Assembly (NCBI GenBank): GCA_022563395.1
Contig: JADFNM010000001.1
Location: 398,342 to 462,341 of the forward strand
Direction: 5' to 3'
Length of the DNA: 64,000 nucleotides
From: Patescibacteria group bacterium
GTDB lineage: Bacteria; Patescibacteriota; Minisyncoccia; Minisyncoccales; UBA10102
Made by a program: the position numbers and the translations under genes
Shown: piece after piece, positions 10,702-60,260 of the stretch
Position numbering within the stretch: the first letter of the stretch is position 1
How the letters are laid out: the number at the start of each line of letters is the position of its first letter
Notes under the pieces: model-generated
The model's input: only the letters and a program-made list of their open reading frames with translations
What the model was told of the DNA's origin: nothing
The model's database searches: none

Positions 10702-10727
10702 TATTACTTATATCATATCCCATATCT

Positions 10728-10746
10728 CCTGCCTGCGGCAGGCAGG
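10728..10746. repeat. GC palindrome CCTGCCTGCgGCAGGCAGG
   Basis: Perfect 19-bp palindrome. Relatives lie at 11797-11814 and, in-frame in tsaD, at 27202-27219. Confidence 0.8.
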
Positions 10747-10780
10747 CCCTAGCAAAACTAAGGAAAAACGACTTTCTTTA

Positions 10781-11681: not shown

Positions 11682-11814
11682 ACTAAACGAGATTTAGGTG
11701 GGGATAACTAAATGAGATTTAAGCAAAACTAAATCGATCCGCCTCAGGCGGACCGATTTAGGAAATAACTGTATTGTTCCTTAATTTACATTAAGGCCTG
11801 CCTGCGCAGGCAGG
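11682..11814. repeat. pile-up of six short palindromic mini-repeats (AT-type CTAAA/CTTAA..TTTAG/TTAAG and GC-type)
   Basis: The six are aCTAAACGAGATTTAGg; aaCTAAATGAGATTTAAg; CTAAATCGATCCGCCTCAGGCGGACCGATTTAG (a GC hairpin nested in an AT palindrome); CCTTAATTTACATTAAGG (11779-11796); and CCTGCCTGCGCAGGCAGG (11797-11814). Confidence 0.85.
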
Positions 11815-11831
11815 AATCATCCACTCAGAAA

Positions 11832-12344
11832 TTATTCACAAACAGCAAGGGTAACAGTTCCTGCGTCAGGTACGCTGTTTCCATCAGCATCTGCTACTTC
11901 CTTTTCAGTCACTCCTCCAGGACCCGTGGCTATAATGGCTACTTGTCCTGCGGTTGCGGCCCGCTCAAGAATGGCATAGGCGCAGTAGTCCTGGTCTGTA
12001 GCTGAGTTGTCAATCCAGGTGTAGGCAGGATTCCCAGAACCCGGATCTGTGGGAACTTTCAGGTACGTTCCAACTGCAGATGGAATGGGAGGAACCTGAG
12101 AAAGATACGCCTCGTTTGCGTTGCAGGTAGAATCGTCATAGCACAGTTCCATTGCGGTGTTAAACTGCCTCATGTCAGATTGTCTGCGTGCGTCTCTCGC
12201 ATTGGCCCGTGCTCCTCCAAGAGATACCAGCACAATACCTGCCAGAATCCCAATAATCGCGATGACCACCAAGAGTTCAATTAAAGTAAACCCGCCTAAG
12301 TTTTTCTTAGAAAAATTTTGGCGGATAAATCCTTTTTGTTTCAT
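11832..12344 (-). CDS. type IV pilin (long leader peptide)
   Basis: [18 protein letters not shown]|[19 protein letters not shown] shows the class III signal with G-1, F+1 and E+5. Confidence 0.85.
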
Positions 12345-12376
12345 TGTTGCGTTCTTGTTACTATAAAAACAGATAT

Positions 12377-12390
12377 CTCGACCTTTCTGT
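12377..12390 (-). promoter_or_regulatory. 14-nt motif ACAGAAAGGTCGAG, 32 nt upstream of the pilin ATG
   Basis: An identical 14-mer at the identical 32-nt distance precedes mini-pilin gene 33639-33995 (34028-34041). Confidence 0.4.
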
Positions 12391-12426
12391 CAAATCCGGT
12401 TCGGGTCGGACAGACACTCTACTAAT

Positions 12427-12484
12427 GTAAATCCTTTTTGTTTCACTGTTGTGTTCTTGTTCTTTAAATGCACAAGCATCAACC
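12427..12484 (-). pseudogene. orphan pilin 5' fragment (leader + first ~7 codons, ATG->GTG)
   Basis: gtaaatcctttttgtttcac tgttgtgttcttgttctttaaatgcacaagcatcaacc is nearly identical to 12961-13020, the start and leader of pilin 12486-12980. No downstream ORF follows. Confidence 0.6.
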
Positions 12485-12485
12485 C

Positions 12486-12980
12486 CTAGAGAGTACAATC
12501 ATTGGTAAACACTCCATTGGTCTCAATTGAATGTAACCCCTCTGCCAGGCTCCCGGCTCCACTCTCCAGCCAGAAACAAATCTGGTAGTCTCCCGTGGTT
12601 GCACCGAGACTTCCGTCAGCCTGACTAATAGAATACTGACAGGTGGCACTAGTACCATTGGCACAGGCTGTCCCTCCGGTTCCAACTGATGGGTCAGCAA
12701 AGTTCACAAATCCTACAATGCTATTATTGCTTGGGCATCCGCTGCACCCCGTACAGGTATTTACCTTGGCATCAGCCAAGACGCATCCTGTCAGTGCCTC
12801 TGGATTGTCTGAGGCCTCAACTTCCAAGGCAGTGGACATTTGCCGTACGTCCGTCACGCGTCTGGCGTCTCTTGCCTTGGCACGAGCAGGACCCAGGGAT
12901 ATAAGAACAATGGAAGCAAGCAAGCCAATAATCGCTATCACGATGAGCAGCTCAATTAAGGTAAATCCTTTTTGTTTCAT
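12486..12980 (-). CDS. type IV pilin, tandem paralog 1
   Basis: MKQKG|FTLIELLIVIAIIG. The start is placed at the internal Met (12980) of the 182-aa track ORF. The C-terminus reads TTGDYQICFWLESGAGSL..IETNGVFT. Confidence 0.85.
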   Translation of the reverse strand: MKQKGFTLIELLIVIAIIGLLASIVLISLGPARAKARDARRVTDVRQMSTALEVEASDNPEALTGCVLADAKVNTCTGCSGCPSNNSIVGFVNFADPSVGTGGTACANGTSATCQYSISQADGSLGATTGDYQICFWLESGAGSLAEGLHSIETNGVFTNDCTL

Positions 12981-13040
12981 TGTTGTGTTTTTGTTCTTTA
13001 AATGCACAAGCATCAACCTTTCAATCGTATTCAAAACAAC

Positions 13041-13526
13041 CTATTCTTCGCATGTGGTAAACACCCCATTGGTTTCAATGGCGTTTAAACCAGATGACAG
13101 GCTCCCGGCTCCACTCTCCAGCCAGAAACAAATCTGGTAGTCGCCCGTGGTTGCAACGGCACTTCCGTCATCCTGGCTAATGGAGTACTGGCAGGGGGCG
13201 GTGGACGGACTTACACTTTGCTGGCAGGCTGCTCCTGCGGTTCCTACTGTGGGGTCGGCAAAGTTCACAAACCCTGCTACTGCTCCGGGGCCCGTGCACA
13301 AATCCACCTTGTGGTCGGCCGAGGTACAGGTTTCTACGGCTTCTGGATTGTCTGAGGCCTCAACTTCCAAGGCAGTAGACATTTGCCGTACGTCCGTCAC
13401 GCGTCTGGCGTCTCTTGCCTTGGCACGGGCAGGACCCAGGGATATAAGAACAATGGAAGCAAGCAAGCCAATGACTGCGATAACAACTAACAGTTCAATT
13501 AATGTAAATCCTTTTTGCTTTTTCAT
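13041..13526 (-). CDS. type IV pilin, tandem paralog 2
   Basis: MKKQKG|[14 protein letters not shown]. The N-terminal ~60 aa and C-terminal ~35 aa are conserved with its neighbours, and the centre is variable. Confidence 0.9.
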   Translation of the reverse strand: MKKQKGFTLIELLVVIAVIGLLASIVLISLGPARAKARDARRVTDVRQMSTALEVEASDNPEAVETCTSADHKVDLCTGPGAVAGFVNFADPTVGTAGAACQQSVSPSTAPCQYSISQDDGSAVATTGDYQICFWLESGAGSLSSGLNAIETNGVFTTCEE

Positions 13527-13584
13527 ACAATCAATGTAAAAAATGATTTTGGCTTTTTTGCCGTTCTGTCAAATCCAAACTGGC

Positions 13585-14058
13585 CTACTGACACGTGGTA
13601 AACACCCCGTTGGTTTCAATGGCGTGCAATAGTGGGCCTCCCAAGCTCCCGGCTCCACTCTCCAGCCAGAAACAAATCTGGTAGTCGCCCGTGGTTGCAT
13701 CGGCCGTCCCGTCTGCCCTACTGATAGAATACTGGCAGGTACTGCCGGAAGCTGACGTACAGGGAGTTCCAGGCGCAGTAGATGAAGGGTCAAGAAAGTT
13801 GCCAAAACCAGCAACCGCACCAGGTCCTGTGCAATCACGCACATTATCATCCAACCCCAGACAACCTTCAATATCTTCCGGATTGTCTGAGGCCTCAACT
13901 TCCAAGGCAGTGGACATTTGCCGTACGTCAGCTACGCGCCTTGCGTCTCTTGCCTTGGCACGGGCAGGACCCAAAGCTACCAATACAATGGAAGCTAACA
14001 TCCCAATGACTGCGATAACAACTAGCAGTTCAATTAATGTAAATCCTTTTTGTTTCAT
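13585..14058 (-). CDS. type IV pilin, tandem paralog 3
   Basis: MKQKG|[14 protein letters not shown], with the same conserved ends as 12486-12980 and 13041-13526. Confidence 0.9.
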   Translation of the reverse strand: MKQKGFTLIELLVVIAVIGMLASIVLVALGPARAKARDARRVADVRQMSTALEVEASDNPEDIEGCLGLDDNVRDCTGPGAVAGFGNFLDPSSTAPGTPCTSASGSTCQYSISRADGTADATTGDYQICFWLESGAGSLGGPLLHAIETNGVFTTCQ

Positions 14059-14124
14059 AGAATATAAATAATATCGACTTTTTTACCGTTTCCTTAATGT
14101 TGAACAAAGTAAAACATCAAGGTT

Positions 14125-14144
14125 CTGAGGGGTTTACCCCTCAG
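14125..14144 (-). terminator. hairpin CTGAGGGG-TTTA-CCCCTCAG after pilin 14170-14661 (weak T tail)
   Basis: 8-bp GC-rich stem 25 nt past the stop. The minus-strand tail is AACCTTGATGTTTTAC. Confidence 0.4.
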
Positions 14145-14152
14145 GTTCTTAT

Positions 14153-14344
14153 TATACTTGACTCAAAGCTTACCAACAAGGGCATTGTCCACCGTTGGGG
14201 CTTCCTGGCAGTCCCGGGTTGTAATCCAGCTTGAGGGAACCTTTTTGTGAACCCGCAAACCAGTCCCCTTCTTCAAGCTGTATGTACACGCAATACAACT
14301 GGCTTGAACAATTGGTAGTCAATGTATTCACGTTGTCTATCCAG
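14153..14344. repeat. 192-bp segment identical to 53586-53777 (pilin 3' end + 17 nt downstream)
   Basis: Base-by-base comparison by eye found no mismatch. Identity stops abruptly at 14345/53778. Confidence 0.9.
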
Positions 14345-14661
14345 AGGTAGGTACTCCCTTGAGGGTCTTTTGGGGTTGGGTCTAAGTACTTGCCGTCATC
14401 TACACCATTGCAGGCTGGGGGATTGATGCAGGGAATCTTTGAAGGAAGAGAGGATCCTGCAATCTGGGAGTACAGCTCATCATCCGAATAATCCAGCTCC
14501 ATTGCAAGCGTTATCTGTCGAATGTCAGACTGGCGCCTAGCATCCCTGGCCTTTGCCCGTGCTCCCCCCAGGGACACTAAAATACTGGAAGACAAAATGC
14601 CAATGATAGCTATTACCACCAAGAGCTCAATTAAGGTGAATCCTTTCTGCTTTTGAGACAT
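14170..14661 (-). CDS. type IV pilin (candidate major pilin)
   Basis: MSQKQKG|[18 protein letters not shown]. It is the first pilin after pilC, is followed by a hairpin, and ends in Cys-rich ..GGQCPCW. Confidence 0.9.
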   Translation of the reverse strand: MSQKQKGFTLIELLVVIAIIGILSSSILVSLGGARAKARDARRQSDIRQITLAMELDYSDDELYSQIAGSSLPSKIPCINPPACNGVDDGKYLDPTPKDPQGSTYLWIDNVNTLTTNCSSQLYCVYIQLEEGDWFAGSQKGSLKLDYNPGLPGSPNGGQCPCW

Positions 14662-21631: not shown

Positions 21632-21802
21632 ATATACTCGCTACAGCTCGTTATTCCTTCTGGAATATACTCCCTGCAACTCGTTATTCCTTCTGGAATA
21701 TACTCCCTGCAACTCGTTATTCCTTCTGGAATATACTCCCTGCAACTCGTTATTCCTTCTGGAATATACTCCCTGCAACTCGTTATTCCTTCTGGAATAT
21801 AG
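21632..21802. repeat. 33-bp tandem repeat x5 (CTCGTTATTCCTTCTGGAATATACTCCCTGCAA) abutting the pilM start codon
   Basis: Unit starts are at 21647, 21680, 21713, 21746 and 21779, with degenerate partial copies at both ends. Each unit contains the inverted repeat TATTCC-TTCT-GGAATA. Confidence 0.95.
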
Positions 21803-27136: not shown

Positions 27137-28249
27137 ATGACTATTCTCGGCATTGAAACCTCGTGCGACGACACAGGCATTGCAATAGTTGAAGGCAAGG
27201 GCCTGCCCGCGCAGGCAGGAAAAACCTGGCCCCGCTTTCGTATTCTTTCTAACGTTGTTGCCTCTCAAATAGAGGTACACAAAAAGTATGGAGGAGTGTA
27301 TCCCAACCTGGCAAAACGCGAGCATATCGTGAATCTTCCCGTTGTTCTCAAAGCAGCGTTGAGAAAAGCAAAGCTCCAAAAAAAGAATCTCAAGATTGAT
27401 GCTGTGGCTGTAACCTACGGCCCGGGCCTTTCTCCTTGCTTGTGGACTGGTATTAACTTTGCAAAAGAACTGGCTAAAAAATATAGCGTTCCTTTAATCC
27501 CCGTTGACCATATGGAAGGGCATCTCTTGGTTGGTCTATTCACCGGTTTGCCTAAACGAGATTTAGGCAAGATCTTTCCTGCTGTCGTTCTCTTGGTGTC
27601 GGGAGGACACACTCAGCTCTTGCTCATGAAAGGAATGGGGAAATATGAGCTGTTGGGAGAAACCAGGGATGATGCAGCAGGAGAGGCCTTTGACAAGACC
27701 GCAAGAATTCTCGGGCTTCCTTACCCCGGCGGACCCGCCGTCGCCGCTGCAGCGGCTCTGGCGGGCAAGCCCGCCATTGCAAAACTCGCAGCCATGCCTA
27801 AATCTCGTTTAGGCATTAACCTCCCAAGGCCAATGATATACACCAAGGATCTTGACTTTAGCTTTTCTGGCTTGAAAACCGCGGTACTATATGACTATCA
27901 GAAAAGAACAAAGAAAGTGCGGGAGTCCAAAGAATATGTACGCAAAATGGCACAAGAAATTCAGCAGGCAATCATTGATGTCTTGCTCAAAAAAACACTG
28001 AGGGCTGCAAAGCAATACAACGCAAAGAGTATTATCCTGGGGGGAGGAGTTTCTGCAAATGAAGAGTTACGAAAACAGCTTAAAGAAGCGGCAGGCAAAG
28101 AAAAGATAGCGCTCTTCCTTCCAAAGAAATCATTGGCAACGGACAATGGGGTGATGCCGGCTTTTGTGGGATACTTTCTCCTTGTCAAAAAGAGGTATAC
28201 AAAAGACCCCGAGTCTATTGCCGCAGACCCCAATCTGCGCTTACAATAG
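27137..28249 (+). CDS. tsaD: tRNA N6-adenosine threonylcarbamoyltransferase TsaD (Kae1/Qri7 family)
   Basis: ILGIETSCDDTGIAIV, HMEGHL, LLVSGGHTQL and DDAAGEAFDKTARILGLPYPGGP. The ATG at 27137 is preferred over the TTG at 27101. Confidence 0.9.
   Translation: MTILGIETSCDDTGIAIVEGKGLPAQAGKTWPRFRILSNVVASQIEVHKKYGGVYPNLAKREHIVNLPVVLKAALRKAKLQKKNLKIDAVAVTYGPGLSPCLWTGINFAKELAKKYSVPLIPVDHMEGHLLVGLFTGLPKRDLGKIFPAVVLLVSGGHTQLLLMKGMGKYELLGETRDDAAGEAFDKTARILGLPYPGGPAVAAAAALAGKPAIAKLAAMPKSRLGINLPRPMIYTKDLDFSFSGLKTAVLYDYQKRTKKVRESKEYVRKMAQEIQQAIIDVLLKKTLRAAKQYNAKSIILGGGVSANEELRKQLKEAAGKEKIALFLPKKSLATDNGVMPAFVGYFLLVKKRYTKDPESIAADPNLRLQ
27202..27219. repeat. GC palindrome CCTGCCCGCGCAGGCAGG inside tsaD (encodes LPAQAG)
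   Basis: One mismatch from the intergenic copies at 10728 and 11797. It lies in a segment absent from E. coli TsaD as I recall that sequence. Confidence 0.75.
27550..27568. repeat. AT palindrome GCCTAAACGAGATTTAGGC inside tsaD (encodes LPKRDLG)
   Basis: The core is identical to the intergenic copies at 30601-30617 and 11682-11699. Confidence 0.8.
27728..27814. repeat. train of four palindromes inside tsaD (GGCGGACCCGCC; GCCGCTGCAGCGGC; GGCGGGCAAGCCCGCC; GCCTAAATCTCGTTTAGGC)
   Basis: It encodes GGPAVAAAAALAGKPAIAKLAAMPKSRLG, a loop about 13 aa longer than in E. coli TsaD. Confidence 0.75.
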
Positions 28250-28258
28250 ATGAATAGT

Positions 28259-28295
28259 TCCTTAGTCTAGCTAAGGAATTTTTAGCTAGACTAAG
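28259..28295. repeat. paired palindromes CCTTAGTCTAGCTAAGG-aattt-TTAGCTAGACTAAGG
   Basis: Variant of the AT-type family, between tsaD and valS. Confidence 0.75.
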
Positions 28296-28312
28296 GATGT
28301 ACAAGGATAACT

Positions 28313-30580
28313 ATGAACGAGTTGCCAAAAGCATACAACCCCCAAAAGACGGAAGACAAAATCTATCAACTCTGGGAAAAGAGCGGCTTTTTTAATCCAG
28401 ATGTTCTTACCAAAAAGAGGGTGGCAAAGAAAACTGCCAAACCATTTTCCATTGTTCTTCCTCCTCCAAACGTGACGGGAACCCTGCACATGGGGCACGC
28501 TGCCATGCTGGCGGTGGAAGATATCCTTATTCGCTACCACCGAATGAAAGGGGAGAAGACGCTTTGGCTGCCCGGAACCGACCATGCTGCCATTGCAACA
28601 GAATCCAAGGTAGAACAAACCCTTTTGAAAAAAGAAGGAAAGACCAAACACGACCTAGGCAGGGAAAAGTTTCTCAAGCTTGTGTATCAGTTTGCAAAAG
28701 AAAGCCACGACGCCATTGTACACCAGGTAAAAAAGATGGGGGCTTCTTTGGACTGGAGCCGTGAGGCCTATACCCTGGACGAAAAGCGGAGCCTGGCTGT
28801 GAGAACTGCCTTTGAGAGAATGTATAAAGAAGGTTTAATCTATCGCGGTGAGCGCATTGTGAACTGGGATCCCAAGATGCAGACCACCGTGTCAGATGAT
28901 GAGATTGAGTGGAAAGAAGAACAAGCCCCCTTTTACTACTTGAAATACGGGCCCTTTACCATTGGTACTGCCCGTCCTGAAACCAAGTTTGGAGACAAGT
29001 ATGTGGTCATGCACCCAAAAGACAAGAGGTACAAAAAGTACAAACAGAGAGACAAAATTGAGCTTGAGTGGATACGGGGGAAAATTACTGCAACCATCAT
29101 CAAAGATAGCTCCATTGACATGAACTTTGGAACCGGAGTCATGACCATTACTCCCTGGCACGACAGAGCCGACTTTGAGATAGCTCTGCGTCACAACCTA
29201 GACAAAGAACAAATCATTGATCTGAAGGGAAAACTCCTGCCTATTGCGGGGGAATTTACAGGCCAGCACATTACAAAAGCCCGTCCCTTGATTGTAGAGA
29301 AGCTCCAAAAGAAAGGGCTCTTAGAAAAAGTGGATAAGAATTACACCCACCGCATTGCAACCAATTCCAGGGGGGGAGGCATTATTGAACCCCAAATTAT
29401 GCGCCAGTGGTTTGTGGATGTAAAGAAAGAGTTTCCGTTTCCGCATGCAGGACTTAAGGGAATAAAGAAGGGACAGAATACCACGTTAAAGAAGCTCATG
29501 CTTCATGTGGTGAAAACAAAACAAATTGAGATTCTTCCCAAACGCTTTGAGAAAATCTACTTTCACTGGATTGAAAACCTCCGCGACTGGTGTATTTCCC
29601 GCCAGATATGGTTTGGGCATCAGATCCCAGTCTGGTACAAGGGTAAAGAAACCTATGTGGGAATACAGGCTCCCAGAGGGAAGGGCCCCGCCTTCGCCAA
29701 TGCTACGGCAGGCACGTGGAAGCAGGATCCCGACACCTTAGATACCTGGTTTTCCTCTGGTCTGTGGACGTTCTCTACCTTGGGCTGGCCCCACTTCGCG
29801 CAAAGCGCTACGCGGGGCAAGCCCGGACCAGAAAACGACCTTGCTAATTATCATCCTACTTCGGTTCTGGAAACAGGGTATGACATCTTGTTTTTCTGGG
29901 TAGCAAGAATGATTTTAATGAGCACCTACCTCGTGGGCAAAGTTCCTTTTCGCACCGTATACCTGCACGGTTTGGTAAGAGATGAAAAAGGTAGAAAGAT
30001 GTCAAAGTCGCTGGGCAACGTCATTGATCCTTTAACCATGGTAGAAAAGTACGGGGCTGACGCAACCAGACTGTCTTTGATTATTGGAGCTGGTCCCGGA
30101 AACGATATCAAGCTGTCTGAAGACCGCGTTAAAGGATACCGCAACTTTGCAAACAAACTTTGGAACATTGCAAGGTTCGTTCAAATCAACACCAAAGACT
30201 ACCCTTTAACTTCGCTCGGGGCAGGCAAAGGAAAGGCAAAACCTAAACTCTCAGCCAAAGATAGAAAGATTCTCTCTGACTTTGAGAAAACCAAAAAGCA
30301 GGTGACTAAACTTATTGAGGAATACCGCCTTTCGCAAGCCGCGGAAACCTTGTATCACTATGCCTGGCACACGTTTGCTGACAAGGTGCTGGAGGATTCA
30401 AAGAAGGTGCTGGCGCAAAAGAACCAAAGGGCTGGAAGACAAAGAGTGCTGCTTTCCATTCTCCGAGAGCTCTTGTCTCTTCTCCATCCCTTCACTCCTT
30501 TTGTCACAGAAGAACTGTATCAGCAGCTTCCCTTAAAAGATAAAAAGAAAACTTTGCTGATAGAGCAATGGCCTGTGTAA
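28313..30580 (+). CDS. valS: valine--tRNA ligase (short form)
   Basis: PPPNVTGTLHMGHA (HIGH), KMSKSLGN (KMSKS), an editing domain and the WCISRQ motif. Confidence 0.9.
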   Translation: MNELPKAYNPQKTEDKIYQLWEKSGFFNPDVLTKKRVAKKTAKPFSIVLPPPNVTGTLHMGHAAMLAVEDILIRYHRMKGEKTLWLPGTDHAAIATESKVEQTLLKKEGKTKHDLGREKFLKLVYQFAKESHDAIVHQVKKMGASLDWSREAYTLDEKRSLAVRTAFERMYKEGLIYRGERIVNWDPKMQTTVSDDEIEWKEEQAPFYYLKYGPFTIGTARPETKFGDKYVVMHPKDKRYKKYKQRDKIELEWIRGKITATIIKDSSIDMNFGTGVMTITPWHDRADFEIALRHNLDKEQIIDLKGKLLPIAGEFTGQHITKARPLIVEKLQKKGLLEKVDKNYTHRIATNSRGGGIIEPQIMRQWFVDVKKEFPFPHAGLKGIKKGQNTTLKKLMLHVVKTKQIEILPKRFEKIYFHWIENLRDWCISRQIWFGHQIPVWYKGKETYVGIQAPRGKGPAFANATAGTWKQDPDTLDTWFSSGLWTFSTLGWPHFAQSATRGKPGPENDLANYHPTSVLETGYDILFFWVARMILMSTYLVGKVPFRTVYLHGLVRDEKGRKMSKSLGNVIDPLTMVEKYGADATRLSLIIGAGPGNDIKLSEDRVKGYRNFANKLWNIARFVQINTKDYPLTSLGAGKGKAKPKLSAKDRKILSDFEKTKKQVTKLIEEYRLSQAAETLYHYAWHTFADKVLEDSKKVLAQKNQRAGRQRVLLSILRELLSLLHPFTPFVTEELYQQLPLKDKKKTLLIEQWPV
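29685..29714. repeat. GC-rich element CCGCCTTCGCCAATGCTACGGCAGGC inside valS (encodes PAFANATAG)
   Basis: It shares CCTTCGCC..A(A/T)GCTACGGC with the tRNA-flanking elements at 48302-48401 and 57732-57790. Confidence 0.7.
29789..29826. repeat. GC-rich element ..CTTCGCGCAAAGCGCTACGCGGGGCAAGCCCGG inside valS (encodes HFAQSATRGKPG)
   Basis: Same word structure (CTTCGC..AAAGC..CTACG). It sits in the loop before the YHPTSVLETGYDILFFW core. Confidence 0.65.
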
Positions 30581-31329: not shown

Positions 31330-31917
31330 ATGCCTTCGTTTTTTGAAAAGTTAAGAAACAGCATGGGCATTGAAGAGAAAGAATTGGACGAGAAGGAGCT
31401 TAAGGAAGAAGAGCGGCCCAAGCAGAAGTCGCCTCAACAGCAATCCGCCGGCGAGGAGGAAAAGAAAAAGGATACTGAAGAAAAGAAGATACAGGTGAAA
31501 TCCTCAAAGTCCTCCGGAGGCGGACCCGCCTCTGGCGGGAAAGAAGATGTGGCTCCCTCAAAAGAGGAAGCCCCTGACTGGTTTGAGCCAGAAGGTGAGT
31601 TGGCTGTTGATGTATACCAGACGGATGATGAAATCGTTATTCAGTCAACCATTGCAGGGGTGAAGCCAGAGGATCTGGACATTTCCATTGAAAACGACAC
31701 CGTTAGCATTTCAGGGGAGCGAAGGAACGTTGTTGAAGACAAAGGTAAGAACTACTTTTACCAAGAGTGCTTCTGGGGAGCTTTTTTAAGGGAGATTATC
31801 CTGCCAGAAGAGGTAGACGGAGAAAGGGCAGAAGCTGTCATGAAAGACGGGGTATTTACCCTGCGCATTCCAAAGATTGAACGCCAGAAAGTAAAAAAGG
31901 TGAAGGTGAGAGGATAA
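31330..31917 (+). CDS. Hsp20/alpha-crystallin small heat-shock protein with low-complexity N-terminal extension
   Basis: The C-terminus reads LAVDVYQTDDEIVIQSTIAGVKPEDLDISIENDTVSISGER..DGVFTLRIPK. The N-terminal K/E-rich region includes palindromes CCTCCGGAGG and CCCGCCTCTGGCGGG (31511-31539). Confidence 0.85.
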   Translation: MPSFFEKLRNSMGIEEKELDEKELKEEERPKQKSPQQQSAGEEEKKKDTEEKKIQVKSSKSSGGGPASGGKEDVAPSKEEAPDWFEPEGELAVDVYQTDDEIVIQSTIAGVKPEDLDISIENDTVSISGERRNVVEDKGKNYFYQECFWGAFLREIILPEEVDGERAEAVMKDGVFTLRIPKIERQKVKKVKVRG

Positions 31918-32187: not shown

Positions 32188-32218
32188 CATATTGTACTCC
32201 TTGTCTTAAAAAGAATAT

Positions 32219-32743
32219 TTACGTTACAATGCTCCGCAAGATAGCGGGGAATCCTGCTGCCATCAAAGCAATGGCAATGCCAATTAAGGCATAGATGAGC
32301 TTTTGTCTTGCACCCGAAACTTGTGCAGGATCCCCTCCTCCAGTCACAAACTGGAAGGCAGCCAAGACAATGTAGATTAAAGATATTGCCAGAAACACGG
32401 CAAAGACCCAGTTGGCAATGATTTGAATACGAGCAAGTATTGCGCCACCAGATTGTGGCACTTCACTCTCTGTTCCAAGACGGAAATTAGCTGGGGGAAT
32501 TTCGCCCGTACCTGAATTACAATCAGCCTTTGTTGCGTACACGGCACTCTTTGAAGCTTTGCAATAATCGCCTGCTTTTGCAGCAACACCTCCACATTCG
32601 CAGTCCGCTGTAACCGCTGCCTCACAATTACCTCCACCTACTGTGCTACACTCCGCCGCAGCAAAAACTGTGGCTGGAGCCAATAAGATCAGTAAGAAAA
32701 CTGCAAGAAAGAAAGTGAGGCCAATAGTTTGTATTCTTTTCAT
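32219..32743 (-). CDS. TrbC/VirB2-like mini-pilin paralog 5 (signal peptide, Cys-rich ectodomain, two C-terminal TM helices)
   Basis: 174 aa. The C-terminus reads ANWVFAVFLAISLIYIVLAAFQFVTGGGDPAQVSGARQKLIYALIGIAIALMAAGFPAILRSIVT. Confidence 0.75.
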   Translation of the reverse strand: MKRIQTIGLTFFLAVFLLILLAPATVFAAAECSTVGGGNCEAAVTADCECGGVAAKAGDYCKASKSAVYATKADCNSGTGEIPPANFRLGTESEVPQSGGAILARIQIIANWVFAVFLAISLIYIVLAAFQFVTGGGDPAQVSGARQKLIYALIGIAIALMAAGFPAILRSIVT

Positions 32744-32747
32744 AGCT

Positions 32748-33179
32748 TTACGTCACAATGCTTCGGAGAATCGCAGGGAAACCGGCAGCCATTAAGGCAA
32801 TGGCAATTCCTATGAGAGCGTAGATTAACTTTTGGCGAGCTCCTGACACCTGGGCAGGATCCCCTCCTCCAGTCACAAACTGGAAGGCAGCCAAGAGAAT
32901 GTAGATTAAAGATATTGCCAGGAATATGGCAAAGACCCAGTTTGCGATAAGACCGATACGGCCAAGAATTTCTGAACCTGAACTAGGTGCCTCTTCGGTG
33001 GTTCCAAGGCGAAAGCTGGTATCTGGTAGTTTGCTCTCATTAACACAAAGTCCGCCGCTACAAATGAAGCCAGTGCCGCACTCAGCGTTTGTGGTGCAAC
33101 TGTCTCCCTCTACAGCAAACACAGCAACTGGAGAGAAAATGAGCACAAAAAGGAAGATTATTCCCAAAAGTATTTTCAT
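32748..33179 (-). CDS. TrbC/VirB2-like mini-pilin paralog 4
   Basis: 143 aa. The last 47 aa are identical to paralog 5, but the codons differ. Confidence 0.75.
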   Translation of the reverse strand: MKILLGIIFLFVLIFSPVAVFAVEGDSCTTNAECGTGFICSGGLCVNESKLPDTSFRLGTTEEAPSSGSEILGRIGLIANWVFAIFLAISLIYILLAAFQFVTGGGDPAQVSGARQKLIYALIGIAIALMAAGFPAILRSIVT

Positions 33180-33212
33180 ACTATTGCCAAATATGCGTTC
33201 AAACTCGGCCTC

Positions 33213-33632
33213 TTAGGTTAATATACTTCTTAGCACATCATCTACCCCGTTGGCAAGGAGGGCAAGCCCAATGCCAATAATGGCATAGAGGAGACGCCTC
33301 TTGGCAGAAGAGACCTTTTCTGGGTTTCCCTCACCTGTTACGAACTCAAACGCCCCCCAAACGAGAAAGATAATAGAAATTGCAAGAAAGATGGCAAAAA
33401 CCCATTCTCCAACCCGTTGAATAATCTGTAGGACAGCTCCTGCCGTCTGGGGACCCTCTGGTAATTCTGCCAAGCACTCATTACTTATACTGCATGTCAA
33501 TCCAGAGTTACACGTTCCTCCGGGTCCGCACGGCTCTCCGAGTCCCTGTGCAAACACAGACCCTCCTGCCAGTACAAAAATAAGGAGGGCTGTTCCAATC
33601 CCAAAAAGTAAAATATACCTTGCGGGTTTCAT
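33213..33632 (-). CDS. TrbC/VirB2-like mini-pilin paralog 3
   Basis: 139 aa with GEWVFAIFLAISIIFLVWGAFEFVTGEGNPEKVSSAKRRLLYAIIGIGLALL. Confidence 0.7.
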   Translation of the reverse strand: MKPARYILLFGIGTALLIFVLAGGSVFAQGLGEPCGPGGTCNSGLTCSISNECLAELPEGPQTAGAVLQIIQRVGEWVFAIFLAISIIFLVWGAFEFVTGEGNPEKVSSAKRRLLYAIIGIGLALLANGVDDVLRSILT

Positions 33633-33638
33633 TAAGCT

Positions 33639-33995
33639 TTATCCTACCAGAATATTCCTCAAAATATCGTCAAAACCTGCAGCCAAGAGAGCAATGGCAA
33701 TTCCTACTGCAGCATAAATGAGCTTTTGGCGCGCCGCAGTCACCTGGGCCGGGTCACCACCACCGGTCACAAACTGGAAGGCAGCCAAAATAATATAGAT
33801 GATTGACATTGCCAGGAAAATGGCAAAGACCCAATTGCCAATTAAGGCAATGCGGTCAAGCAGGTCAGCTCCCGTTTGTGGGCCTTCAGGAAGCCCATTG
33901 GTAGGGTGTTCTCCTCCATGAACAGCCATTGCTACCGGGGCTCCCACCATGACCAGCAGACTCACCGCTAGCATAATACCAAATACTATTTTCAT
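33639..33995 (-). CDS. TrbC/VirB2-like mini-pilin paralog 2 (no Cys-rich region)
   Basis: 118 aa with GNWVFAIFLAMSIIYIILAAFQFVTGGGDPAQVTAARQKLIYAAVGIAIALL. Confidence 0.7.
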   Translation of the reverse strand: MKIVFGIMLAVSLLVMVGAPVAMAVHGGEHPTNGLPEGPQTGADLLDRIALIGNWVFAIFLAMSIIYIILAAFQFVTGGGDPAQVTAARQKLIYAAVGIAIALLAAGFDDILRNILVG

Positions 33996-34646: not shown

Positions 34647-35645
34647 ATGAGGAGACACATGGGACTGATGGTTTTCTTGCTTGCCACTGTCTTCTTGATA
34701 GCGGCATGCGTAGAGGACCCGCAAGGACCCAAGGAAGACACCGGAGGAACAGACTCACGAGGACTGCAAGGAGAACCAGGGCCTCAAGGCATACAAGGAG
34801 AACCAGGAACTCAAGGAGTCCAAGGAGAACCAGGGCCTCAGGGCATACAAGGAGAACCAGGAACTCAAGGAGTCCAAGGAGAACCAGGGCCTCAGGGCAT
34901 ACAAGGAGAAGGAGGGGAGCCGGGGCCAAGGGGAGATAAAGGAGACAAAGGAGAGTCTCCAAGCGAAGATGAGCTCATTAAGCTCCTCAACCAGATAGTG
35001 AATCCTCCTATTCCAACCCCAGAACCCTTGGAGGGCTCCTATCAAGCTCCCAATCCTCGTTTCGTGTTTAGCTACACGACAAAAGATGACGAGGAGGAGA
35101 TAGGCGGATTAGACATCTACCTCATCTCAGACCCGGTCTTTGACCACCCTGGATGCCCTGCGCAAGCCGAAGTATTCGGCCAAAGTGCGAGAGGAGATAG
35201 CGTTCGATGCAGGTTTAATCCTTTACTCCTGCTTACGTGGGTCAAAGAATTCTCTCTGGCAAGCGAGCTTCCTGAAGAAGGTATGGAGTGGGGCGTATAC
35301 GCCACTCTCACGCCCTACCAGGAACCGTGGCCTGTGCCAGAAGAAGCACAAGGACCCAAACCCAGATTCCTCGTACAGCTTGAAGCGTTTGGGCAGGAAC
35401 ATTCAGGAAACATCCTGCTCACCGTATTCCCGAAAGGCAAAGAACCCACTCCTCGGTGTCCTGACCAGGCAGATAAAGGGAACATAATAACTGAGGGAGA
35501 AACTGAGTACTATCGTTGTATCGCGTCTCCTGTGGCCACGCTTGCGTGGCTCCAGAAGTTCTCCCTTGTTAAAGATCTCCCCCCTCGCGAGGAATGGGAG
35601 GAGACCTATGCCATCTTCCCTGCGATCTTCCCCTGGGAGACGTAA
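34647..35645 (+). CDS. collagen-triple-helix-repeat lipoprotein with duplicated C-terminal domain
   Basis: Lipobox FLIAAC, about 21 G-X-Y triplets (GLQGEPGPQGIQGEPGTQGVQ..), then two homologous ~95-aa modules (PNPRFVFSY..EPWPVPEE and PKPRFLVQL..IFPWE). Confidence 0.8.
   Translation: MRRHMGLMVFLLATVFLIAACVEDPQGPKEDTGGTDSRGLQGEPGPQGIQGEPGTQGVQGEPGPQGIQGEPGTQGVQGEPGPQGIQGEGGEPGPRGDKGDKGESPSEDELIKLLNQIVNPPIPTPEPLEGSYQAPNPRFVFSYTTKDDEEEIGGLDIYLISDPVFDHPGCPAQAEVFGQSARGDSVRCRFNPLLLLTWVKEFSLASELPEEGMEWGVYATLTPYQEPWPVPEEAQGPKPRFLVQLEAFGQEHSGNILLTVFPKGKEPTPRCPDQADKGNIITEGETEYYRCIASPVATLAWLQKFSLVKDLPPREEWEETYAIFPAIFPWET
34761..34952 (+). repeat. collagen-like G-X-Y coding repeat (54-bp unit x ~3)
   Basis: caaggagaaccagggcctcagggcatacaaggagaaccaggaactcaaggagtc is reiterated. 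Confidence 0.9.
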
Positions 35646-41131: not shown

Positions 41132-41219
41132 CACACAGCGATAGGTTTAATTGTATTGCCTAAGCTTAGCTTGGTTTTCCACTCCTTAATTTCATTAGGG
41201 ATATATGCGGAGCGAGAGC

Positions 41220-46297: not shown

Positions 46298-46306
46298 CGG
46301 ATATTC

Positions 46307-46323
46307 CCTTAATGAAATTAAGG
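46307..46323. repeat. AT palindrome CCTTAATGAAATTAAGG
   Basis: It lies between the ftsH stop and tRNA-Ile. Identical copies occur at 58651-58667. Confidence 0.85.
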
Positions 46324-46327
46324 ATGA

Positions 46328-48229: not shown

Positions 48230-48301
48230 GCCGCGGTAGCTCAGTGGTAGAGCAGTGGCTTGAAGAGCCTCGTGTCGAGTGTTCAATTCACTCCCGCGGC
48301 A
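48230..48301 (+). tRNA. tRNA-Phe(GAA)
   Basis: Acceptor GCCGCGG/CCGCGGC, anticodon loop TTGAAGA (one T-T mismatch in the stem), T arm GAGTG-TTCAATT-CACTC. Confidence 0.85.
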
Positions 48302-48399
48302 CAAAGTCCAGCCTTCGCTGTCTTCTTTGCGGGTCTTGCCCGCGCGCCGTCGCCAAAGCTATGGCGGCGTGCGACCGAAGCCAGCTACGGCTGGCGAAG
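48302..48399 (+). repeat. GC-rich multi-hairpin spacer between tRNA-Phe and tRNA-Gly
   Basis: The closing stem GCCTTCGC (48311-18)/GCGAAGGC (48394-401) encloses hairpins GCGGG-tcttg-CCCGC, CGCCG..CGGCG and GCCAGC-tacg-GCTGGC. It is homologous to 57732-57790. Confidence 0.7.
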
Positions 48400-48474
48400 G
48401 CGGGCGTGGTATAGTGGCTATTATGAGTCGTTGCCAACGACTAGACGGCAGTTCGATTCTGCTCGCCCGCTCCA
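48400..48474 (+). tRNA. tRNA-Gly(GCC)
   Basis: Acceptor GCGGGCG/CGCCCGC, anticodon arm AGTCG-TTGCCAA-CGACT, CCA encoded. Confidence 0.9.
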
Positions 48475-48513: not shown

Positions 48514-49080
48514 TCAATATCTCCTTAATGAGATTAAGGATTCCTTAATTTCATTAAGGAAAAATTGCTTTCTATGCAACACCGCAAGGGCAAGTTCGTA
48601 TGCTCCAACAAACACTCCGACAAAGAAGAGGTCTCCCAGTAGAGTATATTTCAAGAAGGGGAGACCCATTGTATAAGAAAGCATAAGACCTTCTAGGGTT
48701 GGGGCGTACAAAGGAGAAAAAGCCCACACGGCAAAGTTGGTGAAGAGATAAAAGAGAAACGATCCTGCCAGGGTTGCCAGTGTTATGGTTCCAAGGTTCT
48801 TTCTGCCTTTGATAAGCAGGCCAAAGATACCATAGAACAGAAAGCTTCCGTACACCACAAGCATTAACTTTACATCATAAAACCCAATGACAAGGTCAGC
48901 CAAAAACATCACGGCCAATGGGAGGACAAGGGCCCACCTGCTTTTTCTGGCAAGATATATGCCGGCAAACAAAGCCAAAGCACCTACCGGAGTAAAGTTT
49001 GGGGGGTGAGGAATCAGGCGCCCTGCCAAAGCAATTCCTAGGGCAGCCAACAAAAATCCAATAAGAAGATGCCGCTTCAT
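48514..49080 (-). CDS. polytopic membrane protein, DUF6580-like putative transporter (family assignment from memory)
   Basis: 188 aa with 5-6 TMs and N-terminal LIPHPPNFTPVGALALFAGIY. The last ~15 codons read through AT palindromes at 48523-48559. Confidence 0.55.
   Translation of the reverse strand: MKRHLLIGFLLAALGIALAGRLIPHPPNFTPVGALALFAGIYLARKSRWALVLPLAVMFLADLVIGFYDVKLMLVVYGSFLFYGIFGLLIKGRKNLGTITLATLAGSFLFYLFTNFAVWAFSPLYAPTLEGLMLSYTMGLPFLKYTLLGDLFFVGVFVGAYELALAVLHRKQFFLNEIKESLISLRRY
48523..48559. repeat. paired AT palindromes CCTTAATGAGATTAAGG-att-CCTTAATTTCATTAAGG
   Basis: They overlap the 3' coding end of ORF 48514-49080. Confidence 0.85.
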
Positions 49081-53367: not shown

Positions 53368-53585
53368 AGTTTCAACTGCTTGAAACTTCACGGATTTGCG
53401 CGCCCCGAGTCCCCGAGGGGCAATAATGCAAATCCTGGTCCTGCTTTGGAAAACTGCTGAAAGCAAATCGTTTTTCAAAGCAGGTACCAAAAAAAACAAA
53501 AAATAGCTCAGACATGAAGCTGTTTTTTGTTAGTGCCCAGGGTGTACTATTAGACCTCCGAAGTCTAACACTCCTACGCCTTATT

Positions 53586-53777
53586 TATACTTGACTCAAA
53601 GCTTACCAACAAGGGCATTGTCCACCGTTGGGGCTTCCTGGCAGTCCCGGGTTGTAATCCAGCTTGAGGGAACCTTTTTGTGAACCCGCAAACCAGTCCC
53701 CTTCTTCAAGCTGTATGTACACGCAATACAACTGGCTTGAACAATTGGTAGTCAATGTATTCACGTTGTCTATCCAG
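53586..53777. repeat. 192-bp segment identical to 14153-14344
   Basis: See 14153-14344. It covers the last 58 codons plus stop of ORF 53603-55081 and 17 nt downstream. Confidence 0.9.
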
Positions 53778-57720: not shown

Positions 57721-57731
57721 ATATTCTCGAC

Positions 57732-57790
57732 CCACCTTCGCGGTCTGGCGGACTTTGTCCGCCAAAGCTCGCTACGGCGGGCGAAGGCGG
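57732..57790. repeat. GC-rich hairpin element abutting the 3' end of tRNA-Ser(CGA)
   Basis: CCACCTTCGC..GGCGGAC-ttt-GTCCGCC-AAAGCT..CTACGGCGGGCGAAGGCGG. The words are shared with 48302-48401 and with the valS inserts. Confidence 0.7.
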
Positions 57791-57870
57791 AGGGTGCAGG
57801 ATTCGAACCTGCAAGGGATTGCTCCCAATGGTTTTCGGGACCATCGCAATAGCCGTTCTGCCAACCCTCC
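57788..57870 (-). tRNA. tRNA-Ser(CGA) (putative; C at position 33)
   Basis: Acceptor GGAGGGT/ACCCTCC, anticodon arm ATGGT-CCCGAAA-ACCAT, long variable arm, T-loop TTCGAAT. Confidence 0.75.
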
Positions 57871-58641: not shown

Positions 58642-58860
58642 CGCATATCGCCTTAATGAAATTAAGGATTCCTTAATTTCATTTAGGAACTATTCGAGTG
58701 TTTGAACTGGGGTCCCACTCCACAGCTTATTATAACCTTAGAGGACTGGAAATATATGTCTATTATGCGAGAAAAACTCCTGGAAATCAAAGCGTTGTGC
58801 CCAACCTAACTCCCCAGTCCAAAGCTTATTATACTTTTAGAAGATACAGAATATATGGCT
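58642..58860 (+). repeat. 219-bp direct repeat, left copy (AT palindromes + two promoter/RBS/micro-ORF units)
   Basis: It aligns without indels to 60042-60260 at a constant 1400-bp offset, and is roughly nine-tenths identical by eye. Confidence 0.9.
58756..58809 (+). CDS. micro-ORF L1, MSIMREKLLEIKALCPT
   Basis: Preceded by TATAAC..AGAGGA-N10-ATG. Compared with R1 there are 5 synonymous and 0 nonsynonymous differences across REKLLEIK. Confidence 0.45.
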   Translation: MSIMREKLLEIKALCPT

Positions 58861-60041: not shown

Positions 60042-60260
60042 CGCATATCGCCTAAATGAAATTAAGGAATCCTTAATTTCATTTAGGAACTATTCGAGTG
60101 TTTGAACTGGGGTCCCAGTCCAAAGCTTATTATAACTTTAGAGGACTGGAAATATATGGCTGGCATGAGAGAGAAACTCTTGGAGATTAAAGTGTTGTGC
60201 CCAAGATAGCTCCCCAGTCCAAGGCTTATTATACTTTTAGAGGATGCGGAGTATATGGCT
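60042..60260 (+). repeat. 219-bp direct repeat, right copy
   Basis: See 58642-58860. Confidence 0.9.
60156..60209 (+). CDS. micro-ORF R1, MAGMREKLLEIKVLCPR
   Basis: Same frame and length as L1. The stop is TAG versus TAA. Confidence 0.45.
   Translation: MAGMREKLLEIKVLCPR

Follow-up and report, generated by a model that had tools for sequence, protein, structure and literature searches.

That selfish palindromes can be tolerated in protein loops is already known, both from Rickettsia palindromic elements (RPEs) and from repetitive extragenic palindromes (REPs) that lie inside genes. RPEs, reportedly described by Ogata and co-workers in 2000, are about 100–150 nt long, occur only in Rickettsia and have a consensus sequence for each family. 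Yeast mitochondrial GC clusters and the Magnusiomyces 'byp' elements are organellar, and byps break the reading frame and are bypassed by the ribosome. RPEs are mentioned in papers on bacterial repeats (PMC3733652, PMC10969869). REPs and bacterial interspersed mosaic elements (BIMEs), stem-loops tagged with GTAG or CGTC, are mobilised by REP-associated tyrosine transposases (RAYT; Y1, IS200-like) and have been documented inside genes, tRNA synthetase genes among them, sometimes at the same site in related species (PMC3733652). Transposable elements of the miniature inverted-repeat type (MITEs) include Correia/NEMIS, ERIC and BOX (PMC10969869, PMC3184786). Here we analyse a stretch of 64,000 nt from a Patescibacteria group bacterium (contig JADFNM010000001.1, positions 398,342 to 462,341, henceforth the window), in which the valyl-tRNA synthetase (ValRS) gene valS carries three GC-rich patches. 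These are probably copies of dispersed short hairpin-forming DNA repeats, similar to REPs and RPEs, that entered the gene by insertion and persisted there thanks to a length divisible by three, a frame in use without stops and a position in surface loops.

The valS gene (28313–30580, plus strand) is an intact open reading frame (ORF) of 755 aa, with homologues that contain the Pfam domains tRNA-synt_1 and Anticodon_1, and its product matches the solved Thermus thermophilus ValRS 1GAX with E=1.7e-172. The nearest named relatives of this ValRS come from Wildermuthbacteria and other Parcubacteria, the window itself being from Patescibacteria (candidate phyla radiation, CPR). An identical ValRS protein is encoded in two independent ENA assemblies, so the patches are not an assembly artefact. 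Compared with its closest relative (protein P0002, 91% identity, encoded at DNA locus L083) the window ValRS has 23 additional aa, and an alignment of 28 ValRS located this surplus in the three patches. A sequence-only reading of this DNA had singled out the same patches as GC-rich in-frame inserts at the DNA level, placed in loops of the protein. All the strings that it quoted are indeed present, and the GC content of the patches is 68–73% compared with 47% in the surrounding 2 kb. At the DNA level the 91% identical relative is devoid of the first two patches, and with respect to the T. thermophilus enzyme the second and third count as insertions. In an AlphaFold model all three appear as coil with pLDDT below 50; the model is mediocre (mean pLDDT 69.5) and lends a loop location weak support.

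Patch 1 (29687–29716, plus strand) is a 30-nt in-frame copy of a repeat that we refer to as family A, with the codons CCC GCC TTC GCC AAT GCT ACG GCA GGC ACG and the peptide PAFANATAGT. It consists of an arm CCCGCC, a loop TTCGCCAATGCTAC, an arm GGCAGG and a truncated tail CACG. Its site is empty in L083, where the codon alignment reads GGC AAG GGA|TGG, and also in L012; a decayed copy is found in L084, and in L080, with a ValRS of only about 48% identity, a family A copy close to the consensus occupies the very same junction. Patch 2 (29787–29836, plus strand, HFAQSATRGKPGPEN) is a family A copy as well, located directly 3' of Trp-Pro codons, with arms CCCCAC and GCGGGG, a loop with an extended inner stem (GCGC-AAA-GCGC) and the tail CAAGCC. 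The insert proper (29792–29836) places 45 nt where L083 has the 12 nt AAG AAA ACC AAG. Patch 3 (30203–30226, plus strand, CCTTTAACTTCGCTCGGGGCAGGC), with the peptide PLTSLGAG, is a 24-nt decayed copy of another repeat, family B; the site is empty in L084 and occupied in L083 by a different 18-nt palindrome, CTGCCTGCGCAGGCAGGC. Insert lengths in valS are therefore 30, 33 (net) and 24 nt, all with known orthologous empty sites. The valS copies are decayed and on their own make poor palindromes. The frame is kept, free of stops, in all the inserts of valS and of the window genes tsaD and hsp20, and in all insert-bearing orthologues. ValRS peptides that cross the patches would be GPAFANATAGTWK and one spanning WPHFAQSATR.

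Other variation was seen along the ValRS alignment. Seven close relatives (P0006, P0007, P0012, P0015, P0026, P0050, P0061) have an insertion of about 110 aa (..GFHESVVPQVFAGKTKTYRLRDH..) in the variable stretch that immediately precedes patch 1 (before window aa 445), where other ValRS have a CxxC..CxxC zinc-knuckle version. When 11-mers from the valS loci were ranked without bias, conserved valS codons took the top places and the ranking told us nothing.

The unit conserved in these inserts is the DNA and not the peptide. At the patch-3 junction of ValRS orthologues the family B word, CCTTCGACTTCGCTCAGGGCAAGCC, is found in three reading frames, giving PFDFAQGKP in L085, PSTSLRAGK in L086 and PSTRFARSGQA in L087, and it is this use of three frames at one site that identifies DNA as the conserved unit; the decayed window copy is in the L086 frame. 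At the patch-2 junction the element tail is frame-shifted in L017 (GCTACAGCGGGGCAAGCCGGA, TAGQAG) relative to the window (TRGKPG), and the family A element of ValRS P0021 is translated as PPSLKLRRAGK. Fifty-five candidate family A copies within ORFs used five of the six frames, with a bias that was not exclusive: F0 (PxFAKATAGKP) in 21, R0 (GLPAEALAKAG) in 13, R1 (the frame giving RLxRRSLGEGG) in 12 and others in 9. Taken with the empty orthologous sites, the several frames bear out the view of the patches as DNA-level inserts.

A search of 1.3 Mb of Patescibacteria valS loci with nhmmer and ten seeds pointed to a hairpin with a constant loop. Metagenome contigs were then scanned with a pattern of loop and tail only (TTCGCYAARGCTWC N6 CARGCC), which yielded at least 120 stretches; the copy numbers below refer to the matches listed. 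The six bases 5' of the loop, which are outside the search pattern, are complementary to N6. Pairing over 121 copies reaches 82–92% at six positions and 22% at the seventh, with dozens of different stem sequences. For the 115 distinct copies, standard pairs occupy 92.4% of the cells versus 77.8% in shuffles, and both sides have changed in 153 cells versus 49 (0/500 shuffles as high); when the partner is slid by 1–3 columns, at most 51% of the cells remain paired. Inside the loop Y and R also covary (73 C-G, 41 T-A, 5 other), and two further variable loop positions are independent of this pair. Family A is thus a hairpin in two tiers, with CARGCC as its tail. A covarying 6-bp outer stem encloses TTCGCCAAGGCTAC, the 14-nt loop TTC-GCY-AA-RGC-TWC, in which an internal loop TTC/TWC precedes a covarying inner stem of 3–4 bp closing an AA(A) loop. 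This inner stem is extended in copies from valS, in L017 (GCGG-AAA-CCGC) as in window patch 2. Two-base AA loops closed by Y-R suit DNA better and are unfavourable for RNA. As in REPs, the element is a short imperfect palindrome (a stem-loop of 20–40 nt), and GTAG occurs in it only internally, on the reverse strand, in about 52% of the copies listed (those with W=A). Rfam 15 had no family for the window, the two tRNA flanks described below or 20 loci with canonical copies, either at the gathering score or at permissive E-values. The entries that passed were limited to tRNAs, a fragment of rRNA and a single group I intron, and the best matches below threshold were noise, such as P26 with 14.7 bits against a cut-off of 36.

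The window was also searched, with filters off, using a covariance model (R1) built from the 115 metagenome copies only and containing no window sequence. Patch 2 of valS (29787–29823, E=4e-5) was the top match and patch 1 (29687–29714, E=1.8e-4) the second. They were followed by an intergenic loop-less palindrome, CTCCTGCCTGCGGCAGGCAGGCC (10726–10748, plus strand, E=8e-4), and a segment of tsaD (27732–27771, E=0.002), both matched in stem and tail only, and by the flank of a tRNA-Ser (57755–57791, minus strand, E=0.036) and the spacer between tRNA-Phe and tRNA-Gly (48366–48406, minus strand, E=0.07). The family A matches in the window hence amount to two strong and about four weaker ones, and the two strongest are intragenic. 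The sequence-only reading had proposed that the words found in valS also build the spacers next to the two tRNA genes, and this was confirmed by the R1 matches and by the words themselves. There are three occurrences of GCTACGGC in the 64 kb, all on the plus strand, in patch 1 and the two tRNA flanks, and three of the four plus-strand CCTTCGC lie inside the same three elements. The relation is even closer than proposed, because the 5' arm abuts or overlaps the tRNA end. The first of these structures (57728–57791, minus strand) is a composite element abutting the 3' end of tRNA-Ser(cga) (57786–57870, minus strand). It has GCTACGGC and CCTTCGC/GCGAAGG and reads TCCGCC TTCGCC..GCTTT GGCGGA CAAAG on the minus strand, the 5' arm being the last bases of the tRNA. 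The other is a structured spacer of 97 nt with family A-like half-sites (48303–48406, minus strand), between tRNA genes at 48230–48302 and 48400–48474; its arm runs, on the opposite strand, into the 5' end of tRNA-Gly. Both are composites with half-sites on both strands and fold significantly better than shuffles (z -3.8 to -5.1 for the tRNA-Ser flank, -3.3 to -3.8 for the spacer).

Family A is not specific to CPR. The contigs that carry it range in GC from 32 to 71% (0.32 to 0.71), and it is present in 31 viral contigs; stems drift with the composition of the genome (e.g. CCATAA/GTATAG in a contig of 33% GC) and the loop stays constant. Among 1.29 Mb of named Patescibacteria there were 12 significant copies, clustered in L051 (4), L080 (3) and L028, the first two amounting to local densities of 4 and 3 copies in 22 kb. 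From low-GC contigs, 16 of the 51 copies among the matches listed were deep within long ORFs, and copies were also present in phage intergenic regions. A BLAST of the consensus against 72,556 plasmids gave chance-level matches only (E>=0.02), which indicates that family A is rare in cultured Proteobacteria-type replicons. A group I intron was detected in L096 (796–1096, minus strand, 61.5 bits, above the gathering score) with a family A hairpin at 837–862, near its 3' part, showing that the repeats also land in peripheral regions of introns.

Certain protein junctions have been filled over and over again. The ValRS junction after Gly-Trp-Pro, i.e. that of patch 2, is occupied in 33 of 119 homologues by a type A or type B insert or by one of a decayed type C, with one nested pair; about 10 copies there are family A (P0104, P0087, P0106, P0070 and P0051 among them). 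The neighbour-joining tree requires at least 22 gains or losses, the window being sister to an empty sequence. ThyA of Microgenomates shows presence and absence after a Trp-Pro of its own (WPAQDGREIDQL versus WPAFAKASAGKPREIDQL, WPSFAEASEGKP...). Other repeat-derived peptides were noticed as well, SPQPSPKGRGRKSPLLIGEGEGEV at the patch-2 junction of the L073 ValRS and GLPSEAPKARRR in the phage contigs L214 and L233; further hairpin families likely behave like family A.

GTAG-tagged REPs have family A in their loop or as an immediate neighbour in several contigs. In L147 the distance between a family A copy and a Pfam Y1_Tnp gene with REP dimers on its flanks (a REPtron) is 0.9 kb. This REPtron is complete, with inverted GTAG-REP dimers around the Y1_Tnp gene; the flanking repeats are GTAG REPs and not family A, and family A and a REP dimer form an in-frame composite within the gene that follows (L147 4440–5070 and 5872–5970). 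The gene in question, a non-CPR ATP-grasp gene, has a loop that is hypervariable among close homologues: it can be empty or contain family A alone, a REP dimer alone, both, tandem family A, or family A nested in a REP. From within CPR, a Peribacteria contig (L038, 14045–14660, minus strand) has a Y1/RAYT-like gene with an in-frame GTAG REP, GTAGAGATCGACCGCTGGTCGATCTCT, and an inverted copy at its 3' end, so CPR genomes can host REP/RAYT systems. Two leads were rejected. The gene between paired copies in viral contigs L214 and L233, considered as a possible transposase, is tail-collar-like, and neither there nor in tblastn of the window with Y1 queries was a parent insertion sequence (IS) for family A found. 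A target site GGCC or TGGCC is suggestive at Trp-Pro sites (valS site 2, ThyA, L128, L129) and is not general.

If the valS patches are indeed inserted repeats, new copies would be generated by a DNA-level process acting on single-stranded hairpins, either HUH/Y1 (RAYT-like) transposition or microhomology-mediated template switching from another copy, possibly favouring CC-rich targets, tRNA ends and Trp-Pro codons among them. Insertions outside permissive loops would be purged by selection, which would lead to the repeated filling of the same few ValRS and ThyA junctions, and copies within genes would decay and be simply translated. Several observations weigh against this picture. That the patches are translated is deduced solely from the intact frame. 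Compared with shuffles of equal composition, single copies fold no better (z -0.3 to -1.8), so that the claim of structure rests on covariation and not on energy. Family A has no terminal GTAG or CGTC tag of classical REPs, its conserved end being CARGCC. The window gave no tblastn match to Y1 transposases over its 64 kb, and no consistent target-site duplication was found among the inserts; the direct repeat CCCGCC was seen at tsaD only. Patch 2 shares the flanking residues GPENDLANY with distant insert-bearing ValRS. A loop that is constant across 32–71% GC, and likewise the exact phasing on tRNA ends, would be no less in keeping with a selected function than with pure selfishness. Finally, our coverage of the source genome, and so of its copy number, is this one window of 64 kb.

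The association with tRNA genes deserves separate consideration. Among the matches listed, 14 of the 121 copies abut a tRNA, always via the 5' arm, when chance would predict about 0.1% per copy. Ten of these are on the same strand as the tRNA, with the arm beginning with CCA exactly past the discriminator base in all seven that were checked against Rfam coordinates, and the other four, on the strand opposite to the tRNA, reach into its 5' end. The tRNA-Ser copy of the window has the same layout, and both intergenic window copies are at tRNA ends. At tRNA 3' ends, local amplification can turn copies into short tandem arrays, whose periods are 29 and 22 nt (L095 5933–5993; L151 1645–1700). Family A could accordingly be a functional structured motif tied to tRNA genes, the copies inside genes being accidental by-products, an idea that also fits stems that follow genome composition around an unchanged loop; we regard it as unlikely. 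The more concrete version, in which an RNA or single-stranded DNA hairpin sequesters the acceptor end (for processing, termination or protection) and has its loop bound by a widespread protein, seems to us similarly doubtful. About 85% of the copies listed are away from tRNAs, many of them in ORFs in several frames and orientations, and there are copies between phage genes, within a group I intron and in REP loops. Moreover, 14 of the 16 tRNAs of the window have no such hairpin, Rfam has no match for it, and an RNA would be poorly served by an AA loop closed by Y-R.

The other two explanations concern the valS patches themselves. They might have come by lateral transfer or gene conversion of valS segments from insert-bearing Patescibacteria rather than by insertion of a free element in this lineage. 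Patch 2 is followed by GPEN-DL-AN-Y, as in P0104, P0087, P0070, P0106, L013 and L017, and the sister P0002 has KKTK-DL-ET-Y; patch 1 has the same length and junction in the window and in L080 in spite of the low identity of the two ValRS. As a full account this is quite improbable. The DNA identity of window and L017 within the insert, counted by eye, is about that of the flanking conserved codons, with no sign of recent transfer, the A and N residues could be compensatory (inserts of type B and C favour Ala there too), and the intergenic copies and those in other genes would be left unexplained. Since the residues just downstream co-vary with the presence of the insert, transfer between valS genes may nevertheless have contributed to patch 2. 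We give hardly any credence to the remaining explanation, that the segments are lineage-specific loops with a peptide function (an AxxGKP-type surface loop) and that GC-rich low complexity makes the DNA alike by coincidence. Family A at ValRS site 2 and in ThyA is nearly always in the frame xFAxAxxGKP, and the native TsaD-like ALAGKP shows that such peptides can arise without the element. The frame data largely refute it, with three frames at site 3 and other frames elsewhere. It is contradicted too by the covariation of the stems, by the intergenic and tRNA-flanking copies, by the absence of patches from the closest relative and by a model trained on DNA from outside the window that singles out these very patches. 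Insertion of dispersed hairpin repeats thus remains our preferred explanation. A bolder proposal, which we put forward only tentatively, is that family A is a pan-bacterial module in which the target supplies the 5' arm (tRNA CCA/acceptor ends, Trp-Pro codons) and the 3' arm is produced or selected to fit it. This would amount to a new guide- or template-directed insertion, or to a functional motif linked to tRNA ends, that repeatedly remodels the ValRS and ThyA loops of genome-reduced CPR.

Not everything palindromic in the window belongs to family A. The sequence-only reading had postulated a single genome-wide family of elements. 'Genome-wide' goes too far for the 64 kb covered, and a single family stands for valS patches 1 and 2 and the tRNA flanks; patch 3, a tsaD palindrome and the hsp20 insert differ, making at least three repeat types. 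The hsp20 insert (31510–31539, plus strand, SSGGGPASGG), which had been grouped with the valS patches, is in fact a 30-nt in-frame GC palindrome missing in the close relative L087, with a DNA fold of z=-2.7; it contains CCCGCC-TCT-GGCGGG and lacks the family A loop. The third repeat type, CCTGCCYGCGCAGGCAGG, is a loop-less palindrome with two matches where 0.02 are expected. One is an 18-nt in-frame insert in tsaD (27200–27217, plus strand, CCTGCCCGCGCAGGCAGG, GLPAQA) that is missing in L086, the other a perfect intergenic palindrome, CCTGCCTGCGCAGGCAGG (11797–11814, strand not assigned), and the intergenic palindrome at 10726–10748 is a one-base variant. Another extra segment of tsaD, 36 nt flanked by the direct repeat CCCGCC (27740–27775, plus strand), is ambiguous. 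It had been taken for an element, and we rejected it as a family A insertion as unsafe, given that its ALAGKP resembles native sequence and the segment has the look of a duplication. Its two halves have native segments as orthologues, in L084 for the first and in L086 for the second, and the alignment suggests that it is probably a tandem duplication of native TsaD sequence; it was not counted as an element.

Repeats of other kinds are also frequent in the window. AT-rich intergenic inverted repeats CCTTAAT(N)ATTAAGG, a distinct family that is often doubled and near tRNA genes or gene starts, are located at 48515–48567, 58642–58696, 60042–60096, 46298–46325, 41183–41211, 28252–28296 and 11100–11129/11280–11309, and have the appearance of a genome-specific motif, be it an operator, promoter or terminator. 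Two stretches of 193 nt that are 39 kb apart (14152–14344 and 53585–53777) are 100% identical and are followed by 207 nt at 84% identity (14356–14562/53792–53998), a pattern suggestive of recent duplication of, or gene conversion between, small paralogous genes. Tandem arrays of small paralogous genes are found at 12190–14652 (period about 540 nt) and 32218–33875 (about 530 nt), the latter encoding T4SS-pilin-like proteins with near-identical C-terminal membrane segments. There are, finally, a 27-nt tandem repeat coding for a collagen-like sequence (GEPG...) at 34743–34915 and a 33-nt tandem repeat with at least four copies and 96% identity at 21632–21801.

If our interpretation is right, even Patescibacteria genomes of about 1 Mb, poor in mobile elements, are invaded by selfish hairpins that become part of essential proteins. 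This would account for odd GC-rich peptides such as xFAKATAGKP, PPSLKLRRA, LRQGYGGQA, RSLGEGG, FDFAQGKP, STSLRAG and LRSGQA, which clutter metagenomic protein databases and alignments and which the covariance model allows to be masked or annotated. The recurrently filled junctions would provide a natural map of insertion-tolerant loops, and the phasing on tRNA ends together with the conserved loop points to a recognisable trans-acting factor, making the mechanism experimentally approachable.

How, then, do these elements compare with those already described? Literature searches with peptide and DNA strings found no relevant paper (primer coincidences only), and those for in-frame palindromes in CPR found only general REP and MITE papers. 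Judged by this literature and by Rfam, family A is apparently new. MITEs resemble it in being non-autonomous, structured and dispersed, in that they can be co-transcribed and in that they sometimes extend ORFs; they differ in being longer than 100 nt, in their terminal inverted repeats and target-site duplications and in a parent IS that can be recognised; nothing of this kind was seen here. With the GC clusters and byps our inserts share the character of short GC-rich palindromic mobile inserts in coding genes that stand out in an AT-richer genome. Unlike byps, every insert here is in frame and free of stops, so ordinary translation suffices. The likeness to RPEs is greater: selfish palindromes in frame in essential genes, translated, in surface loops, and also beside or inside RNA genes, with the host protein left intact, as is the case in valS. 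The elements described here are only 24–45 nt long, however, combine a conserved loop with freely varying stems and are found in many phyla, the host in this case being a member of the Patescibacteria. REPs are likewise imperfect palindromes of 20–40 nt with stems of 6–9 bp and short unpaired tails, arranged in clusters and dimers; REPs themselves are mostly extragenic. Family A adjoins them and nests in them beside a REPtron. It departs from REPs by conserving a 14-nt loop and the CARGCC tail rather than the stem, by its lack of a terminal tag, by a cross-phylum rather than species-specific distribution and by its phasing on tRNA ends; in the window no RAYT was found. What appears to be new in family A is therefore the constant 14-nt loop and tail with free stems, the spread across phyla, the phasing on tRNA ends and the frequent presence in essential proteins of CPR.

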